A stretch of 64,000 bases of DNA from a phage (PZ452579.1); one strand, 5' to 3'. Counted from the stretch's first letter, positions 1 through 6,572 are shown. The notes: generated from the letters alone by a model not told the origin. Translations and numbers: made by a program.

Positions 1-145
1 ATTTCGTTCCATGCCGGAGGAACGAACTCTTCTTCACCGTGGATTTTATCTCGCTGAACAAATTCAATCTTTGAACTATCGTCAATAAACTTAACCAAGC
101 GGTGATTAGTGCTCATATCAATATCCTCTAAAAGACGTAGTTTCA
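1..145 (-). CDS. hypothetical protein, partial (N-terminal ~48 codons; 3' end beyond window start)
   Basis: ATG at 143-145 on minus strand opens MKLRLLEDIDMSTNHRLVKF... running off the window edge; not in ORF track (partial). Confidence 0.35.
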
Positions 146-1096
146 TTATAACACCTCAATGGCATTTCGTAAACCATCCGCTTTCGCATTCAGAGCTTTT
201 AACGATTTAGTCTGTTCTGCAATCTGGGCTTCGACTTCTTTCAGACGAGATTTGAGATATTCGCGTTCTTCTCTTAAGTTATCAACTTTTTCTACTTTAG
301 GTTCTTTAATAGGCTTAGGCTTAAACACATTAGGGTTCTTCAGTTTAATTTGAATTCGAGAACTGAATAACATTGAACCGTTATCTTCGATTTCGTCAAA
401 CATTTCAACAACATCCATAGTCTGTAACATCATGCGAAGTTTATAAGACAACGAACGAACGGTTTTGTTGCGCTTATTAATTTCTTCGGCTTTCATGGTA
501 CCGAGATTACGTGAGTAGTAATAAGGAACCTGGATATCAATTGATAATGATGCGTTACCATTACCGGTTGGTTTGAATACTGCAGTAACCCAATCTTTAA
601 CATGAACTTTATTTGTACGACCATCACCGCCTGTGAATAATTTACGAGAATGTTTAAAAAGCATATTCACTTGGTTATTGAATTCACAAGCAAATTTATC
701 AGCAAATTTAGTTTCAGGAATGGTAGAGAACCAATCAGCCAAATGAGTCTTTTTAACATCATTAACAATAGTGAATTCAACCAAATCGGTTTTAGATGTC
801 ACAGATTTAATAAAGTTCGGCTTCATAAAGTTTTTGATGTTATCACGAGCCACAGTAGAAGATAATAAACGAGAACGTTTGAACCATTGAAGCAGTGTCC
901 CTAATGAATGAGAATACGCATTTTGAGTATCTTTACAGATATGATTTTCTTGACCTGTGTATGTACCAAAATCACGAAGAATACCACTTACTACATCTCG
1001 GTGTTGAACATCAAATCCTAGTGCACCAGCAGCGCGCTGAGCATGAACGTTAGCGATAAGACCGGCAAAGTATTCAATGTAATGTGAACGTGTCAT
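146..1096 (-). CDS. hypothetical protein with C-terminal coiled-coil segment
   Basis: 316-aa ORF; promoter-like element and RBS upstream (1101-1154); heptad-like C-terminus (LKSRLKEVEAQIAEQTKSLKALNAKADGLRNAIEVL). Confidence 0.6.
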   Translation of the reverse strand: MTRSHYIEYFAGLIANVHAQRAAGALGFDVQHRDVVSGILRDFGTYTGQENHICKDTQNAYSHSLGTLLQWFKRSRLLSSTVARDNIKNFMKPNFIKSVTSKTDLVEFTIVNDVKKTHLADWFSTIPETKFADKFACEFNNQVNMLFKHSRKLFTGGDGRTNKVHVKDWVTAVFKPTGNGNASLSIDIQVPYYYSRNLGTMKAEEINKRNKTVRSLSYKLRMMLQTMDVVEMFDEIEDNGSMLFSSRIQIKLKNPNVFKPKPIKEPKVEKVDNLREEREYLKSRLKEVEAQIAEQTKSLKALNAKADGLRNAIEVL

Positions 1097-1124
1097 AATA
1101 TTTTCCTCTCGTTAAGATAGAAAG

Positions 1125-1154
1125 ATTATACTCCAACCATCCTTGGTTGTAAAC
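1125..1154 (-). promoter_or_regulatory. early-type promoter element (GTTTAC-N17/18-TATAAT on minus strand) with spacer inverted repeat
   Basis: Minus-strand GTTTAC and TATAAT about 18 nt apart; spacer palindrome CAACC/GGTTG; RBS follows. Confidence 0.55.
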
Positions 1155-1158
1155 TGAT

Positions 1159-2094
1159 TTATGATTTTAATGCATTCATTGCGTTAAAAAGTTTAGAGTA
1201 CTGCAACTGGAGCTTGGTAACTACTTGTTGAGCATCACGAAGCTTAGCTTGTGCTTTGTCAAGTTCAACAGACAGTTGGTCCATAGTGGCCTTGATTTGA
1301 TTATAATAGTAATCTTCAGCAGGAAGAAGACCGTTAGAGATTTCCAATTTAGTCGACGGTGAAGTGTATATAGATGGAGCAGTAGAATATGCACCTAGAA
1401 CTTCAGCATTGCCAATTGGGGTTGCAGTAATTGATGCTTCGAACGTTGCATTTTCCTTTTTAAGATTTTGATAGTATTCAGAGTCTTTGTGCCACCATGG
1501 CGCAGGAACCTTTTTACCAATAGATACACGAGCCTGGATAGCGATATGGCCCTTATTCTTGATAGGGTCGATAATATTAAGCTCACGAGAATAAATTGCT
1601 TTAATCTGGTGGATATTATCACCTAAAACTTCCAACGCTTGGTGGAATACACGAGCAACGTTATCATTCTTAGGTTTATACGTAAGAGTGAACTCGTTCT
1701 CACTGATAACCATGATTTCTAACTTATCGTAAGTATATTTCAAATGTTTCATGTTAATTGCTTGAGGACGAATACGAGAAGCAATGGCCATCAGATTGTT
1801 AAGGTTATTTCTGAACTGTTTAGCAAAATATTGTCCGTAACCGCCAATACAAAAATTACGAAGTTTCTGCTTGGCTAATAAACGGCTGAACTCACCATTT
1901 TTAATGAACTCTTTAACGGGTGTGTTAGTAACGCATTCAAATTGAGTAAACTTACGAGAAGTAATCCCATAATATGAACAGATTTCCTCAATCTCTTCAG
2001 GAGTCTTTACAGGCATACGGATGGGATTAGGTCCTGGGGTATATGCATTCGAGGTAAATTCTTTGATAAGTTCTCTACGTGTAATAGAAGCCAT
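1159..2094 (-). CDS. hypothetical protein, paralog of 2150..3145, C-terminal coiled coil
   Basis: 311-aa ORF; N-terminal and central blocks resemble the neighbour (ITRRELIKEF vs ITSDAVKHEI; GGYGQYFAKQFRNNLNNLMAIAS vs KGYGKSMADGIFSALNKLNVLSMI). Confidence 0.6.
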   Translation of the reverse strand: MASITRRELIKEFTSNAYTPGPNPIRMPVKTPEEIEEICSYYGITSRKFTQFECVTNTPVKEFIKNGEFSRLLAKQKLRNFCIGGYGQYFAKQFRNNLNNLMAIASRIRPQAINMKHLKYTYDKLEIMVISENEFTLTYKPKNDNVARVFHQALEVLGDNIHQIKAIYSRELNIIDPIKNKGHIAIQARVSIGKKVPAPWWHKDSEYYQNLKKENATFEASITATPIGNAEVLGAYSTAPSIYTSPSTKLEISNGLLPAEDYYYNQIKATMDQLSVELDKAQAKLRDAQQVVTKLQLQYSKLFNAMNALKS

Positions 2095-2120
2095 TTTATA
2101 TTCCTCATGTTGAAAAATTT

Positions 2121-2149
2121 ATTATACTACAACCATCCTTGGTTGTACA
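2121..2149 (-). promoter_or_regulatory. early-type promoter element (TGTACA-N17-TATAAT)
   Basis: Near-copy of the 1125-1154 element with a variant -35. Confidence 0.45.
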
Positions 2150-3145
2150 TCATTCCTTAAGAAGTTTTACTACTTGAATAAGATTAGCTCGTTCTGTTTT
2201 ATTTTTACCGTTTAAGCCTGCTAATCGTGAGATTTCATCGTCAGTCTGTTGAATAGTTACATTAAGTTCGTTAATCAAAGCTTCAAAGTATTTGATTTGC
2301 TCAGCATGTTTTGATTCAAATTTCTGAACCGGAATAACGTCTTGGTTCAGTTCATCAATAAGGTCTTTAAGAGCATCTTCTTGGTTGATATCATATTCAA
2401 CTTCTTTTATTTCTTCAGCGAGCTCGTCTTTATATCTAACATCTTTTAGTCCTGGAGCTGGACCTAAAATCTCTTCTTTAAGAGTACAAACATATCCAAT
2501 ACGATATCCAATGCCGTCTCGCTTGATATCAACTTCGTCGATAAATCCACAATGTTTAAGCCCGGAGCCAATTAGGTCAAAATATCCTTGACGACGTCCT
2601 TCAAACGTTACACGAACTACTAAGACGGTTTTGCCACCGACCTTTTGAAGCTCACATTTATAAAAGTCTGTTGAACCTGAATAACGTGGATGAGTTTTAA
2701 AGTTCATCTGACGATCTAGGCCCATTTGTAAGCGTGCTGATACGGCCAGAAAACGTGTTTGGTTCTCGTTAAGATGAGCAACAATCCATTTCAAAGGCAT
2801 TTTACCATGTTCACGACCGAACAAATCAGTACGTCCTAAATTACGCAGGATATTGTTAGAGTTAATCATCGACAGAACGTTAAGTTTATTCAGCGCGCTG
2901 AAGATTCCATCGGCCATTGATTTTCCGTAACCTTTACATGCTTTAATAAGCGCTCGCGGTAGATTAGTATAGATTTCAGACGGCATATGAAAATCAAATT
3001 TACTAACCAGTAATTGATGAACTTGGATAGCAATTTGTTCATAATTAAGTGCTCTGCGATCATTATGGTCTTTAAACCACACTTTAATCTGTGAAGCACA
3101 TAAACCGTTAATTTCATGTTTTACCGCATCAGATGTAATGCTCAT
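2150..3145 (-). CDS. hypothetical protein, paralog of 1159..2094, C-terminal coiled coil
   Basis: 331-aa ORF; shared blocks with neighbour; acidic/coiled C-terminus. Confidence 0.6.
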   Translation of the reverse strand: MSITSDAVKHEINGLCASQIKVWFKDHNDRRALNYEQIAIQVHQLLVSKFDFHMPSEIYTNLPRALIKACKGYGKSMADGIFSALNKLNVLSMINSNNILRNLGRTDLFGREHGKMPLKWIVAHLNENQTRFLAVSARLQMGLDRQMNFKTHPRYSGSTDFYKCELQKVGGKTVLVVRVTFEGRRQGYFDLIGSGLKHCGFIDEVDIKRDGIGYRIGYVCTLKEEILGPAPGLKDVRYKDELAEEIKEVEYDINQEDALKDLIDELNQDVIPVQKFESKHAEQIKYFEALINELNVTIQQTDDEISRLAGLNGKNKTERANLIQVVKLLKE

Positions 3146-3207
3146 AACTATTTCCTCAGATTGAATTGGAACTCAAAACCATTATAACCCGTCCTTGGGT
3201 AAAGCGT

Positions 3208-3735
3208 TTATGCGTGAACCGTCTTTAAACGTTCTTCAAATTTCCGAAGAGTACTAATACGTTCTGCTTTCTGTTTTGTATAGTTTGCAATACGTTCTGA
3301 AGTGAGAGCGTATCGTTCGTTTACTGTTTCTTTCATGAAGTCAGGGATTTCACGAGAAGCTTTAATTTCATCAAACTTATCGAGTACTGCCTGGTCTTCA
3401 GCGATTAAATTTTCGTACATCTCGATATCTTTCTTAATGAAGTCGATATCTTCCTGGGTTACTTTGGATAAACGAGATGCTTTATCCTTTTTGTACTGCT
3501 CGTTAGTTTCGCGAGACCAGAATAACGTACGTTTTTTGTTAGTGTTTTTGTAGACTTCCACAATTCCAACTGAATCGATGATAACAATCCAATTCCAGCG
3601 AGATTTGAAAATCTGACCTCCGTCCACGGTAATCTCGTTACCATAAGCAACGTCGTTAAAGAACTTGCTTTGTGCTTCAGATTTAAATTTACCGTCGTTA
3701 TAATTTACCAGGTTGAAAATATCTTTAGCGTTCAT
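3208..3735 (-). CDS. hypothetical protein
   Basis: 175-aa ORF; RBS (ggaggtaaaac) and early-promoter element immediately upstream. Confidence 0.55.
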   Translation of the reverse strand: MNAKDIFNLVNYNDGKFKSEAQSKFFNDVAYGNEITVDGGQIFKSRWNWIVIIDSVGIVEVYKNTNKKRTLFWSRETNEQYKKDKASRLSKVTQEDIDFIKKDIEMYENLIAEDQAVLDKFDEIKASREIPDFMKETVNERYALTSERIANYTKQKAERISTLRKFEERLKTVHA

Positions 3736-3751
3736 GTTTTACCTCCAGTAG

Positions 3752-3791
3752 TTGATAGGTCTATAATAACATAACCATAGACCTTGTAAAC
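3752..3791 (-). promoter_or_regulatory. early-type promoter with stem-loop enclosing the -10
   Basis: GTTTAC-N17-TATTAT; inverted repeat AGGTCTAT/ATAGACCT flanks the -10. Confidence 0.55.
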
Positions 3792-3793
3792 AA

Positions 3794-4081
3794 CTAAAAG
3801 AAACTTTTTTCGGTATTTTTTCCACTGAACCAAACCGACTTCGGTATTTTCTGTAATTTTTCAGATTTAAGTTTCTCTTCCTGTTCTTTCTTATATACAC
3901 CCTTGTCGTACTGGAGCATCTCTATGGCATTCTTTTGCAAACGATCTAAGGTAATTAAGGCTTTAGTTTTTCCTTTCAAGGAAGAGTCCTGGCGAACCTC
4001 CTCGCTATATTGCATCGTAGAACTAACCATACGATGAGCATAGAGTTCGACTGCGGCTTTAATTTTTTGCATAAAATCCAT
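3794..4081 (-). CDS. hypothetical protein
   Basis: 95-aa ORF; overlaps alternative-frame ORF 3976..4182, so the true frame is uncertain. Confidence 0.35.
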   Translation of the reverse strand: MDFMQKIKAAVELYAHRMVSSTMQYSEEVRQDSSLKGKTKALITLDRLQKNAIEMLQYDKGVYKKEQEEKLKSEKLQKIPKSVWFSGKNTEKSFF

Positions 4082-4219
4082 AACATATCCTCTTTGATTT
4101 GTACATCATTATTTTTAAATATTTCTATGCCCTCAGTAGGTTCCTGGTGTCCTTCTTTGAGGTAAGCCATATGATTATTCATCTTTATGGCTTTTGTTAC
4201 CTCAGAACTTCCTATAAGC

Positions 4220-4342
4220 TTATTTCAGTAAAGTAACTTCCGAGATTTCTTCCCAACCATCTTTATCAGTTGAAATAAAATCTGCTACATAAAGAGCCGT
4301 ACGTAATGATACATTGCGAAGACGAGATACGTTAGCCTTCAT
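4220..4342 (-). CDS. small hypothetical protein (about 40 aa), start overlaps stop of the ATPase gene (ATGA)
   Basis: ATG overlapping TGA stop of 4339..5190; MKANVSRLRNVSLRTALYVADFISTDKDGWEEISEVTLLK; below ORF-track length cut-off. Confidence 0.25.
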   Translation of the reverse strand: MKANVSRLRNVSLRTALYVADFISTDKDGWEEISEVTLLK

Positions 4343-5190
4343 CCAGGACAATGCTTTATACGTTTCTGCATCATGTCAGTAGATAATATTACATCTTCAA
4401 CTCGAACCATAATCTCTTCATTAGAGTGTACTCCAAGGTCCAAATACACTGAACGAGATACTAAAGCTTGAAGGTGGGGAGCAAGTTTCGAACCGCGTTC
4501 TAACTCTTTATCGATATCAACGTTTGTAATGAAAACAATAGTACCTTCAAACTCAAATTCTTTATCAATACCCTTATCATCGAGATAAGATGACGCAGTG
4601 CTCCAACAAACTTTGCGTTTATCTCCGGTATCTAATGCTGCTTTAAGAAGGTTCAAGATGTCCATATCTGAGAATACGTCAACGTCGTCGATTAAGAGAA
4701 CGCTGTCTGCATCACGGTTGAGCCAAAGTTGTTCGTAAAGGCCAATACCAGAGATTTTACCATTAATACTTTTGTATTTGATGAAACCATTATCATTAGC
4801 ATTATTAAGTGCTTTATCCAGAGAATACGTCTTACCAATACCGGCTGCACCTGAAATAATGAGTGAACGAATTTTGCCATCGATAATACCATTCGTCATC
4901 ATGTTCATTACTTTAAAGCGTTTGTTGATACGAGTTTTCATATCTTCAGTGCTTTCAACAACTGCAACTGGTGATGTCTCAACTCCTTCCATTACGATGT
5001 CTGATTTGAAGACCCATACTCCACGTTCAGAACCATCAATCATAACGAAAATTTTACCGTCACCTAAGTGGGAACATTCAGGATTAAGCTTTGCCGGGAA
5101 CCATGTCTTTGTGGCAACATAAGAACCAGAGATTTCGTTATTACGATAGATACCTTTTTTGATTTGAACGTTGAACATTTTATTCTCCAA
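4339..5190 (-). CDS. P-loop NTPase (AAA-like ATPase) with N-terminal extra domain
   Basis: 283-aa ORF; Walker A GAAGIGKT and Walker B-like LLIDDVD. Confidence 0.6.
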   Translation of the reverse strand: MENKMFNVQIKKGIYRNNEISGSYVATKTWFPAKLNPECSHLGDGKIFVMIDGSERGVWVFKSDIVMEGVETSPVAVVESTEDMKTRINKRFKVMNMMTNGIIDGKIRSLIISGAAGIGKTYSLDKALNNANDNGFIKYKSINGKISGIGLYEQLWLNRDADSVLLIDDVDVFSDMDILNLLKAALDTGDKRKVCWSTASSYLDDKGIDKEFEFEGTIVFITNVDIDKELERGSKLAPHLQALVSRSVYLDLGVHSNEEIMVRVEDVILSTDMMQKRIKHCPG

Positions 5191-5208
5191 ATTTACTCAT
5201 TTCGTTTC

Positions 5209-5246
5209 GATAGGTCTATAATAACATGTTTAAAGCAAAAGTAAAC
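5209..5246 (-). promoter_or_regulatory. early/middle-type promoter element (GTTTAC plus TGCTTTA box)
   Basis: GTTTAC-N17-TATTAT with MotA-box-like TGCTTTA in the spacer. Confidence 0.45.
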
Positions 5247-5248
5247 AA

Positions 5249-5467
5249 TTATTTGCGACGAGATTTTTTGGTAAGAGGTTGAAAGAACACTGCTTTACCA
5301 GCAGGAGTCAAAGTGACTCGTAATGCATTACCGATTCCCAAGGATGCTTTAACAAGACCTTTAGATTTCAGTTCACCGAATGCTTGACGTTGGTCTGCAT
5401 CACGAGTGTTAACCATAAGACCTTTATCACCAGCTTCACGAATCATTTCTAACATTTTGGTTTTCAT
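5249..5467 (-). CDS. small basic hypothetical protein
   Basis: 72-aa ORF with Lys/Arg-rich C-terminus; own promoter-like element upstream (5487-5526). Confidence 0.45.
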   Translation of the reverse strand: MKTKMLEMIREAGDKGLMVNTRDADQRQAFGELKSKGLVKASLGIGNALRVTLTPAGKAVFFQPLTKKSRRK

Positions 5468-5488
5468 TTTGTTTTCTCCTCTTGTTTT

Positions 5489-5526
5489 GATAGGTCTATA
5501 ATAACATATCCTAAAAGCATGTACAC
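5489..5526 (-). promoter_or_regulatory. middle-type promoter candidate (ATGCTTTTA box plus TATTAT)
   Basis: MotA-box-like ATGCTTTTA about 12 nt upstream of the -10; variant -35 GTGTAC. Confidence 0.4.
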
Positions 5527-5573
5527 TACTTTTTAAAAATATTTTGACCCCCTAAAGGGCCCGAAGGCCCTTA

Positions 5574-6572
5574 TCATTTATAATACGAATTGTGGTTTTC
5601 TAAGTAGACTTGCTCAAGGAAATCATCCCAGAAACTCATATCTACTTTTTGTTGCATACCGTTCTTAGCGGCTTGTTCTGATGCTTGTTCAACTTGTTCA
5701 ACTTGTTCAACGATATCTTCTAGGAATTCTTGCACAGTTTTAAACGTATGTTTACCAAGCTTAACATCGAGAATAAATGGAGCATCCTGAAGTGGGTAAA
5801 CCAGGTCGCCGGTTTTGTAAATTTCCAATAGTTGAAGTCCACCACGGCATGCATGACTCAATGCTTTCCAATCAATACCTTCATTGGCTTCTGCCTTACG
5901 AGCACGTTCACCGTAGTTCTCTTCAAGTTTAACCAGGATGGCATTGAACTCTTTGTTAGTTAACGTATCTTGGAATTTACGGTCCAACAGACTATAGAAT
6001 GTTTGCTTACCTGTTTTCTCGTTTTCAGTTTCAACCCATGAAGCAAATTCACCTATAGGCAGAACATTCTTCATATGTGATAAACGAATTACTGCACCGT
6101 TATCAAAGTATTGTCCCCATTCATTAGAACGTTTAAGGGCTTGACGAAGAACAGCCAGTCGAGAACCCTTGACACCGTATTTAGAAGCTTGCTTACGGAC
6201 ATACCCTAAATAAGATTTCATGTTAGTGGTATAGAAACGAGACCTGTTATCTTGAATATACTTCCATACATCAGGCAAATCAGATTTAACTACTAGACTT
6301 TGTGGAGTGTGAAGCATATCTAATGCGACGGTTTCACCATCCGCAGCTAGTTTAAAGAAATATTTGAGACTATACAACTCATGGTCTACGTCGTCTTTTG
6401 TGTTCTTAGAAGATGTGTTATTCGTGTTCTTGCTCATGTGTTCTTTAACGTTACCGGTCAAGATATCACGAGCATGAGGGACATAAATTTCTTTAAAATC
6501 GACGTCAGATTCAGGAGTAGACGTTCCATAAAGGTGGCTACCAAAGTAGCCTTTCATAATTGTTTTCATCAT
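5574..6572 (-). CDS. Pol-beta superfamily nucleotidyltransferase-like protein
   Basis: 332-aa ORF; N-terminal motif FGSHLYGTSTPESDVDF (GS-x10-DxD) typical of the nucleotidyltransferase fold; GC hairpin right after stop. Confidence 0.55.
   Translation of the reverse strand: MMKTIMKGYFGSHLYGTSTPESDVDFKEIYVPHARDILTGNVKEHMSKNTNNTSSKNTKDDVDHELYSLKYFFKLAADGETVALDMLHTPQSLVVKSDLPDVWKYIQDNRSRFYTTNMKSYLGYVRKQASKYGVKGSRLAVLRQALKRSNEWGQYFDNGAVIRLSHMKNVLPIGEFASWVETENEKTGKQTFYSLLDRKFQDTLTNKEFNAILVKLEENYGERARKAEANEGIDWKALSHACRGGLQLLEIYKTGDLVYPLQDAPFILDVKLGKHTFKTVQEFLEDIVEQVEQVEQASEQAAKNGMQQKVDMSFWDDFLEQVYLENHNSYYK

Follow-up and report, generated by a model that had tools for sequence, protein, structure and literature searches.

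Three consecutive genes near the start of a phage sequence (PZ452579.1) are, judged by sequence and gene order, the Mosigvirus versions of the already-known T4 genes nrdC.3, nrdC.5 and nrdC.6. The window analysed here is the whole 64,000-nucleotide stretch of this phage, and all three genes lie on its minus strand: open reading frame (ORF) 1 at 146-1096 (316 amino acids; T4 NrdC.3 ortholog), ORF2 at 1159-2094 (311 amino acids; RB69-type NrdC.5, Pfam family DUF7235), and ORF3 at 2150-3145 (331 amino acids; T4 NrdC.6 ortholog). These positions are exactly those given in a preliminary description of the sequence. Taken singly, they are unremarkable T-even phage genes annotated as hypothetical, and the useful part is the link between them. 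Whether ORF1-3 are NEVERTHELESS paralogs was examined with profiles, and the answer, held with good confidence, is that they are deeply diverged paralogs of one gene. Taken as a whole, we lean towards the reading that these nrdC.3, nrdC.5, and nrdC.6 counterparts are diverged paralogs encoding early, non-enzymatic proteins that bind host defences.

Identity of the three genes

The window belongs to an RB69-like T-even phage (Mosigvirus). Many such phages match bases 1-6000 at 95-96.5% identity, and in the annotated sister phage S143_2 the region is situated between nrdC and mobD. Homologs of ORF1, ORF2, and ORF3 are found by tblastn in 654, 133, and 742 phage records, respectively. The ratio of nonsynonymous to synonymous substitution rates (dN/dS) between the window and S143_2 is 0.13 for ORF1, 0.21 for ORF2, and 0.12 for ORF3, and 0.10 for the neighbouring gene NrdC.8. 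Conservation across phage records and purifying selection between sister phages indicate that ORF1-3 are real genes.

ORF1 shares about 55-59% identity with T4 NrdC.3 (UniProt Y04O, 36.3 kDa; E 7e-121) and matches phrog_1435 over residues 1-316 in a PHROG scan (E 1.3e-102). Every ORF1 homolog carries the precomputed Pfam annotation PF26897, and the sister annotation of ORF1 is Y04O-like. In sister phages, the ORF1 counterpart is followed directly by nrdC.2, a position orthologous to that of T4 nrdC.3. ORF3 is about 33% identical to NrdC.6 of T4 and RB32 (UniProt Y05B, 31.7 kDa) over 92% of the protein (E 1e-19). It matches phrog_2257 (E 5.9e-126), its homologs carry precomputed Pfam PF26899, and its place, with nrdC.8 (nrdC.7 in T4) on the upstream side and nrdC.5 on the downstream side, fits NrdC.6. 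ORF1 (55%) and ORF3 (33%) are orthologs of T4 proteins that, together with NrdC.4, stand as uncharacterised early-region ORFs. The T4 slot holds four genes (nrdC.6, nrdC.5, nrdC.4, and nrdC.3), and the window lacks nrdC.4.

ORF2 is named NrdC.5 in RB69 and is a member of PHROG 2351. It matches DUF7235 (PF23882) with 382.7 bits against a gathering cut-off of 30, residues 15-310 aligning to model positions 1-307. T4 NrdC.5 (420.6 bits) and an intermediate form from locus L009 (395.9 bits) match the same full-length model. T4-type and RB69-type NrdC.5 profiles align with an hhalign probability of 95% (E 4e-8), and the L009 form bridges the two types (E 7e-16 and 4e-12). Domain matches between these types are limited to 109-170 and 264-341, the body being far less conserved than the tail. 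The ORF2 subtype is found in Mosigvirus only and is isolated in sequence space: an exhaustive hmmsearch of 1.84 billion representatives with the ORF2 profile returned its own cluster only and no bridging sequences. T4 NrdC.5 and ORF2 have in common the curated Pfam model over its full length, the position between nrdC.6 and nrdC.4/3, size, architecture, and the same tail ending (KLNNALNALN in T4, KLFNAMNALKS in ORF2). ORF1 and ORF3 gave no DUF7235 match at E<=0.1 in the Pfam scan; they differ from T4 NrdC.5 in lying outside this family, to which they are related through the hub profile only.

The preliminary description had named two findings that would speak against its account, and both are present: pairwise similarity among the three proteins is not significant, and each clearly matches a gene of the T4 nrdC-mobD region.

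Evidence for a superfamily

ORF2 and ORF3 had been described as sharing N-terminal and central sequence blocks, with ORF1 as the odd one out. Direct comparison bears out neither statement. BLASTP of ORF2 against ORF3 gives E=0.15 and the remaining ORF pairs give E 2.8 and 0.24, none of them significant. The ORF2 and ORF3 families, with hhalign scores of 0.2-0.3%, are the least alike pair, and the best direct link between families is that of the ORF1 family with the ORF2 family (NrdC.3/4 against NrdC.5, 71%, E 3.7e-5). Shallow family profiles showed no significant hhalign link among the ORF1, ORF2, and ORF3 families. Direct BLASTP and shallow hhalign were rejected as insufficient evidence for or against homology. 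By eye, the three proteins are alike in their starts (MASIT or MSIT), in one central helix motif (QYFAKQFRNNLNNLMAIASRI in ORF2, KWIVAHLNENQTRFLAVSARL in ORF3, and DKFACEFNNQVNMLFKHSRKL in ORF1), and in a common C-terminal ending.

Every ORF was classified in 18 viral contigs that had been retrieved with the conserved neighbour NrdC.10 as anchor. Three groups emerged, consisting of NrdC.3 with NrdC.4, three NrdC.5 types, and NrdC.6. NrdC.3 and NrdC.4 are clear paralogs (hhalign 96.9%, E 1e-10, 225 columns), and the three NrdC.5 types are mutually joined at 94-97%. The best link between groups at this stage was 4.9%, compared with at most 1.5% among 98 control pairs. Single-linkage phmmer clustering also joined NrdC.3 and NrdC.5 at E<1e-40; this was an artefact of a natural gene fusion, P0033, and was removed.

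The lead to an intermediate came from the PHROG scan, in the form of a 338-residue protein in the same slot of another genus (PHROG 26858). This hub protein cross-matches the NrdC.6 PHROG in both body and tail (residues 151-336, E 8e-6) and the NrdC.5 PHROG (E 4e-6), and T4 NrdC.4 matches phrog_26858 over residues 64-316 (E 2e-4). These cross-matches are independent evidence for a superfamily. A hub profile was built from seven sequences of Kanagawavirus, Mosugukvirus, and Marfavirus phages. In those genera, the protein occurs once per genome, is 309-338 residues long, and is encoded immediately upstream of nrdC.2. The hub profile aligns with NrdC.3/4 at 94.8% (E 5e-8, 211 columns), with NrdC.5 at 96.6% (E 5e-10, 236 columns), and with NrdC.6 at 94.2% (E 1e-7, 195 columns). 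All three alignments are colinear down to the final residue. With the window proteins as reference, the scores are 96.1%, 97.1%, and 95.1% for the ORF1, ORF2, and ORF3 families, respectively.

Several controls bear on these values. Unrelated neighbour families score at most 3.5% at full length, 1.9% for bodies (the last 60 residues removed), and 3.9% for tails. Body-only profiles of NrdC.3/4 and NrdC.6 match the hub at 76% (E 2e-5) and 74% (E 3e-5) in the same central block, which for NrdC.6 corresponds to ORF3 residues 81-171. Tail-only matches to the hub are 53% for NrdC.3/4, 96.5% for NrdC.5 (E 8e-10), and 58% for NrdC.6, the register being kept to the C-terminus (positions 19-59 on 19-59 for NrdC.6). 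When the hub alignment is reversed, so that composition and heptad periodicity are kept, every score falls to 1.3% or less (0.6% or less for the colinear family-to-hub matches; for the tails, 1.3% with ORF1, 0.9% with ORF2, and 1.1% with ORF3).

Iterative HMMER searches of 520 sequences from the seven hub seeds recovered, in the first round, 20 of the 21 RB69-type NrdC.5 proteins, all five of the T4 type, 11 of 13 NrdC.6 proteins, and four of five NrdC.4 proteins; NrdC.3 followed in the second round. Among the roughly 400 unrelated ORFs there were no matches even at E<=10. The coiled-coil-like proteins NrdC.8 and NrdC.11, and their tails, never match the family by hhalign or HMMER. Two slot proteins of other genera considered as members, X13 (about 260 residues) and X22 (374 residues), fail both methods.

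These comparisons make it highly probable that NrdC.3/4, NrdC.5, and NrdC.6 form one superfamily with PHROGs 26858, 12512, and 31182 of other genera. This would be a new relationship, since databases keep NrdC.3/4, NrdC.6, and DUF7235 as three unrelated families. The preliminary idea of tandem divergent paralogs thus holds by way of the hub profile and not by pairwise alignment.

Predicted protein architecture

Two central helices recur in all families. The first, with the pattern F(K).SRLL(S/A)......NF, spans residues 72-90 of ORF1, 68-81 of ORF2, and about 88-103 of ORF3. The second, F(A)..F(N)....N.L....(A)SR, spans 131-152, 88-108, and 118-139, respectively, and is aligned across the three families by MAFFT. 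The central block of ORF1 (residues 72-152; 641-883, minus strand) contains the FKRSRLLS...NF helix and the FADKFACEFNNQVNMLFKHSRKL helix. That of ORF2 (residues 68-108; 1771-1893, minus) contains EFSRLLAKQKLRNF and QYFAKQFRNNLNNLMAIASRI, and that of ORF3 (residues 82-139; 2729-2902, minus) contains LNVLSMINSNNILRNL and LKWIVAHLNENQTRFLAVSARLQ. AlphaFold2 (AF2) places central helices at residues 76-90 and 128-154 in ORF1 and at 69-83 and 86-108 in ORF2.

The three proteins had also been described as having coiled-coil C-termini, and each indeed ends in a heptad-periodic helix of 30-55 residues, as judged by a heuristic score and, for ORF1 and ORF2, by AF2. The heptad score is home-made and differs from COILS and MARCOIL; a coiled-coil protein was taken to need hydrophobic heptad periodicity over at least four heptads in a continuous predicted helix. 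Scores of at least 1.0 cover residues 267-315 of ORF1, 259-310 of ORF2, and 281-311 of ORF3. In ORF1, the C-terminal heptad helix (residues 267-316; 149-298, minus) ends in GLRNAIEVL. In ORF2 (residues 258-311; 1162-1323, minus), it opens with LLPAE and ends in KLFNAMNALKS. The ORF3 helical tail (residues 270-331; 2153-2338, minus) opens with VIPVQ, has a break at GLNGKNK, and ends in NLIQVVKLLKE. The proline motif ahead of the tail helix in ORF2 and ORF3 is LVPAE in the hub, and the ending L..A(I/M/L)..L(K) is common to the families. AF2 models the tail helix at residues 275-315 in ORF1, with a predicted local distance difference test (pLDDT) value of about 56-70, and at 258-310 in ORF2 (pLDDT 60-73).

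Core and tail of ORF2 are separated by a hypervariable linker (residues 222-257; 1324-1431, minus). Its least conserved window is 233-247, with block identities of 0.55-0.69, compared with at least 0.95 elsewhere, and with insertions and deletions. Residues 236-257 have no secondary structure in AF2 (pLDDT about 25), and the linker is probably disordered. The least conserved segment of the ORF3 family is likewise the linker, at residues 232-246.

The AF2 models of ORF2 with the family alignment (pLDDT 41) and of ORF1 with the superfamily alignment (pLDDT 54) are both too weak for fold assignment. The order of elements agrees in both: helices, a long helix, beta-beta(-beta), alpha, beta-beta, linker, and tail helix. 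The common architecture would begin with a variable N-terminal helical region and a conserved helix pair, continue with an alpha/beta core and a hypervariable linker, and close at the C-terminus with a heptad helix of about 45 residues whose ending is conserved. The MAFFT alignment leaves as invariant across the three families only the initiator Met, a Thr, one Phe, and three Leu. As these are hydrophobic residues or Met and Thr, they speak against a catalytic site common to the families, though less strongly because the alignment is uncertain.

A Foldseek search of BFVD with the weak ORF1 model matched ORF1's own family strongly and three other proteins of 304-370 residues weakly. All three are full-length matches with low template-modelling scores: A0A023W506 of Serratia phage PS2 (E 5e-4), E5E4A2 of Acinetobacter phage Acj61 (E 2e-3), and A0A2D1GM86 of Salmonella phage Melville (E 0.12). 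These proteins of more distant T4-like phages may, on the modelled structure, be further family members.

Promoter cassettes

Upstream of each of the three genes, on the minus strand, there is a promoter-like element together with a ribosome-binding site, GAGGAA. The early-promoter-like element of ORF1 (1125-1153) reads TTTACA-N17-TATAAT, with 11 of 12 consensus matches, and has a spacer hairpin, AACCA-AGGA-TGGTT. The ORF2 element (2121-2149), TGTACA-N17-TATAAT, has the same spacer hairpin. The ORF3 element (3181-3205), GCTTTA-N13-TATAAT with the spacer ACCC-AAGGAC-GGGT, is either of the middle type (MotA-box-like) or early promoter-like. The MotA reading is based on the T4 middle-promoter consensus, in which a TGCTT box lies about 12 nucleotides upstream of the -10 box (PMC4122927).

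Although the coding regions are unalignable, the promoter cores of ORF1 and ORF2 share 22 of 23 nucleotides, with 0 such matches expected by chance. Both elements are kept in Mosigvirus loci, and analogous elements occur upstream of T4 nrdC.3 and nrdC.4. The case for these promoters rests on position, match quality, and the identity of the two cores, as the scan as a whole was not enriched over shuffled sequence (10 elements found against 13.7 expected). The earlier statement that each gene has its own promoter elements is borne out gene by gene, as far as promoter-like elements go, and not by the scan overall.

Across five promoters from the window and T4, the spacer hairpin has 4-5 base pairs and an AGGA loop, with stems that vary by compensatory changes. 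These are AACCA/TGGTT twice, ACCC/GGGT, CCACA/TGTGG, and AGCCA/TGGCT (the window and nrdC.4 and nrdC.3 of the T4 locus, L004). The hairpin would be transcribed in read-through RNA only, and candidate roles are promoter strength, RNA processing, or a recombination site.

The arrangement resembles the PeSL and PmSL promoter-stem-loop cassettes of hyperplastic regions in T4-type genomes, which carry their own TTTACW-N17-TAYWAT or Mot-box promoter with a short stem-loop where relatives gain and lose ORFs (Arbiol et al. 2010, PMC2839356; Comeau et al. 2014, PMC4122927). The PeSL consensus is matched upstream of ORF1 and nearly so upstream of ORF2. However, the hairpin lies within the promoter spacer here and next to the promoter in PeSL, and the sole fusion junction seen, that of P0033, is within coding sequence.

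The final codons of ORF1 overlap a further promoter-like element (145-173, minus), TTTACG-N17-TATAAT, whose -10 box is preceded by TG. The gene served is presumably the nrdC.2 homolog downstream, which the window start cuts off.

Copy number, deletions, and divergence

The preliminary description placed the genes in a variable region, and comparison with other loci agrees: copy number ranges from one to four, and natural deletions and fusions occur. Eleven loci of other genera have a single family member per genome, whereas T4-like, RB69-like, and L009 loci have three or four, always in the order nrdC.6, nrdC.5, (nrdC.4), nrdC.3. This pattern of copy number and order fits a lineage-specific tandem expansion.

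In phage ACG-C40 (L023 4305-4713), a deletion runs from the nrdC.5 start to the nrdC.3 tail, leaving a 72-residue NrdC.5 stub and an unannotated NrdC.3 tail. Phage Pinarejo (L024 4436-4649) is without nrdC.6 and retains the NrdC.6 tail alone. In L010 (14394-15426), nrdC.4 is split into two ORFs. In P0033, from contigs of the Yersinia phage fPS-65 type, NrdC.5 residues 146-272 are fused in frame to NrdC.3 residues from about 143 to 308, with removal of nrdC.4. Comparison with L004 5974-6996 and 3934-4860 places the junction inside coding sequence, at a shared FN..VN microhomology. Tail-only tblastn matches (H105 and H145) had raised the idea of a mobile coiled-coil module, which was dropped, as both are deletion remnants. 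Evolved T4 also lost array genes and yet stayed viable (PMC9391042).

Identity to T4 is 59%, 31%, and 33% for ORF1, ORF2, and ORF3, compared with 78-83% for NrdC.8, NrdC.10, and NrdC.11. The suggestion that the family evolves rapidly holds between genera only; sister phages show purifying selection.

Function and proposed mechanism

The preliminary description recognised no function, which is outdated for the NrdC.5 family. Dsr1 is a SIR2 NADase defence that T4 nrdC.5 overcomes (PMC9391042). An evolved T4 clone with deletions failed to plate on ECOR17, and deletion of dsr1 in ECOR17 restored plating. Plasmid-borne dsr1 protected MG1655, and expression of nrdC.5 restored infection of dsr1+ MG1655 by the T4 deletion clone (PMC9391042). 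The gene is described there as an early gene (Srikant, Guegler & Laub, eLife 2022, PMC9391042). According to a 2026 preprint, E. coli Dsr1 carries a tetratricopeptide repeat (TPR) sensor that is a homolog of the Avs7 sensor, and its trigger is the major capsid protein of the phage (PMC12803255). For the host-interaction role that had been suggested, the T4 nrdC.5 genetics against Dsr1 speak in favour.

An inhibitor of a comparable system offers a functional analogy. DSAD1 inhibits DSR2, a NADase with a SIR2 domain, by binding its sensor region in competition with a late structural-protein trigger (PMC10981675, PMC11087589, PMC10973363). DSAD1, found in Bacillus phages and directed at DSR2 rather than Dsr1, serves here as a model for the proposed action of NrdC.5. 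Within T4, the anti-toxin-antitoxin island of dmd, tifA, and adfA consists of small non-essential early genes, each directed against a different host defence (PMC9391042). The nrdC.3-nrdC.6 array may be an analogous cluster, although the island's members are mutually unrelated and the array is a paralog family with one member of known target.

In the proposed scheme, an ancestral gene for a protein of about 320 residues, present in one copy just upstream of nrdC.2, would have expanded to three or four copies in T4, RB69, and related lineages, each duplicated copy keeping its own promoter and ribosome-binding-site cassette. The products would be early, non-essential, non-enzymatic binding proteins. 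Early expression is suggested by the promoter-like cassettes and the early-gene description of nrdC.5, and accessory nature by the natural deletions and fusions and the viable loss in evolved T4 (PMC9391042). A non-enzymatic role is suggested by the lack of an invariant polar residue and of any enzyme match in Pfam, NCBIfam, or PDB. The proteins may oligomerise through the C-terminal tail, while the diverged body would bind and neutralise host defence proteins with a specificity that differs per paralog. The NrdC.5 family, including ORF2, might occupy Dsr1 ahead of the late capsid protein, as DSAD1 does for DSR2, and ORF1 and ORF3 would likewise have anti-defence roles. More speculatively, and with considerable doubt, the array and the one-copy slot gene could be a diversifying family of oligomeric "sensor plugs", each paralog blocking in advance a different host pattern-recognition sensor of late structural proteins (TPR sensors of the Dsr1/Avs7 type and others).

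Several points weigh against the main reading. The superfamily link hangs on a single intermediate family of seven sequences and on profiles with a low effective number of sequences. ORF3 is not significantly linked to ORF1 or ORF2 by direct comparison of either proteins or families. The link between NrdC.5 and the hub is borne mainly by the tail; the NrdC.5 body-only profile matches the hub weakly, at 4.4% (E 0.009) in the same place, and NrdC.3/4 at 15%. Fold searches for a common core with the poor AF2 models gave nothing consistent. Conservation of anti-Dsr1 activity is challenged by the 23-31% identity of ORF2 to T4 NrdC.5, which the exhaustive ORF2 hmmsearch did not reach at database-wide significance. 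In the literature searched, no published mechanism of T4 NrdC.5 was found, and searches for newer work on nrdC.5 and for the Pfam accessions likewise yielded nothing. No functional data were found for NrdC.3, NrdC.4, or NrdC.6, nrdC.5 alone having any.

Alternative readings

The strongest alternative, a serious contender although somewhat short of an even chance, is that ORF2 is a true DUF7235 member with another specificity, directed at another Dsr1 allele or sensor, so that the anti-Dsr1 activity would not carry over to this phage. The low identity to T4 NrdC.5, the isolated Mosigvirus-confined subtype, and a body much less conserved than the tail between the two NrdC.5 types all fit this possibility. 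Homologs of TifA also differ in their ability to inhibit their target (PMC9391042). Shared function is favoured instead by the same syntenic position, by the L009 intermediate that bridges both types, and by the full-length match of all three NrdC.5 forms to one curated Pfam model.

A second alternative accepts one superfamily but denies it a common anti-defence role. ORF1 and ORF3 would then be early host-takeover or regulatory binders of host or phage housekeeping targets, with counter-defence in the NrdC.5 branch only. This is possible, if on the unlikely side. It draws on the restriction of functional data to nrdC.5, on dN/dS values for ORF1 and ORF3 (0.12-0.13) that are near that of NrdC.8 (0.10) and show no signature of an ongoing arms race, and on the far wider spread of NrdC.3 and NrdC.6 (654 and 742 records) than of the ORF2 subtype (133). 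However, phages can do without these genes, natural isolates have lost them repeatedly, and copy number differs between genera. Their surroundings are a hyperplastic region that holds further accessory genes, and between genera they diverge extremely when set against their neighbours. Dispensability, copy variation, location, and divergence are all typical of host-range or counter-defence genes.

That the three genes are unrelated ORFans is improbable. Their likeness would then come down to a coiled-coil tail acquired by recombination or convergence and to a central motif shared by chance, and the array would reflect cassette shuffling, not duplication. Direct pairwise similarity is indeed not significant, Pfam and PHROGs hold three separate families, the strongest cross-family signal of NrdC.5 is its tail, and shuffling of promoter-flanked cassettes is a known trait of T4-type genomes (PMC2839356, PMC4122927). 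Against this, NrdC.3/4 and NrdC.6 match the hub at 74-76% in the same central block with body-only profiles, and the hub alignments are colinear over 195-236 columns and collapse to 1.3% or less when reversed with their coiled-coil character kept. Other neighbours with coiled-coil tails (NrdC.8 and NrdC.11) never match. ORF1 and ORF2 have the same predicted order of secondary structure, and the promoter cassettes are similar, with compensatory hairpin changes.

Finally, it is very improbable that the array proteins work as enzymes, for instance on NAD+ or on products of its breakdown, which would account for resistance to the SIR2 NADase: other phages do counter NAD+-depleting defences enzymatically (NARP1, NARP2, and NARP3), but no polar residue is invariant in the three families, searches of Pfam, NCBIfam, PHROGs, and PDB sequences gave no enzyme-family match, and a long coiled-coil tail with a hypervariable linker is atypical of metabolic enzymes. 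The PDB sequence and NCBIfam searches returned no relatives of the array proteins and no solved structure of any relative.

Neighbouring genes

Upstream of the array lie NrdC.10 and NrdC.11 (4339-6572, minus), which are 78-80% identical to their T4 counterparts and so conserved far more than the paralog array. NrdC.10 has a weak AAA/STAND-like P-loop match, and NrdC.11 is a DNA polymerase beta-family nucleotidyltransferase of the RlaP type (Pfam PF10127, E 2e-12). The two may be a functional pair. The gene for NrdC.10, the AAA-like ATPase (4220-5190, minus), has a 22-base-pair deletion relative to phiE142, with its junction at about 4366/4367 and flanked by the short direct repeats GCAGAAACGT...GCTGAAACGT. 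The resulting frameshift leaves a truncated 283-residue ORF (4339-5190) and an orphan 43-residue ORF (4220-4351) with the normal C-terminus, and reflects either a pseudogene or a sequencing error.

In one-copy genera, a protein of about 260 residues (PHROG 4750) is conserved one to three small ORFs upstream of the single family member (L007 12819-13589, L014 13037-13819, L027 4458-5243, L028 4080-4853, and similar loci). Its hhalign score to the family is at most 0.4%.

Significance

If the array is one family, three further T4 genes without an assigned function, and the corresponding genes of many coliphages considered for therapy, become specific counter-defence candidates that can be tested at low cost. 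The array would also offer a clear case in which counter-defence diversity arises by tandem duplication followed by divergence. Should the more speculative "sensor plug" proposal be true, the best-studied phage would hold three new anti-defence specificities (NrdC.3, NrdC.4, and NrdC.6) as well as a new anti-defence fold, and tandem duplication with a promoter cassette would be a T-even route to a wider counter-defence repertoire. Because natural isolates differ in the copies they carry, host-range prediction for T4-like phages would be affected.

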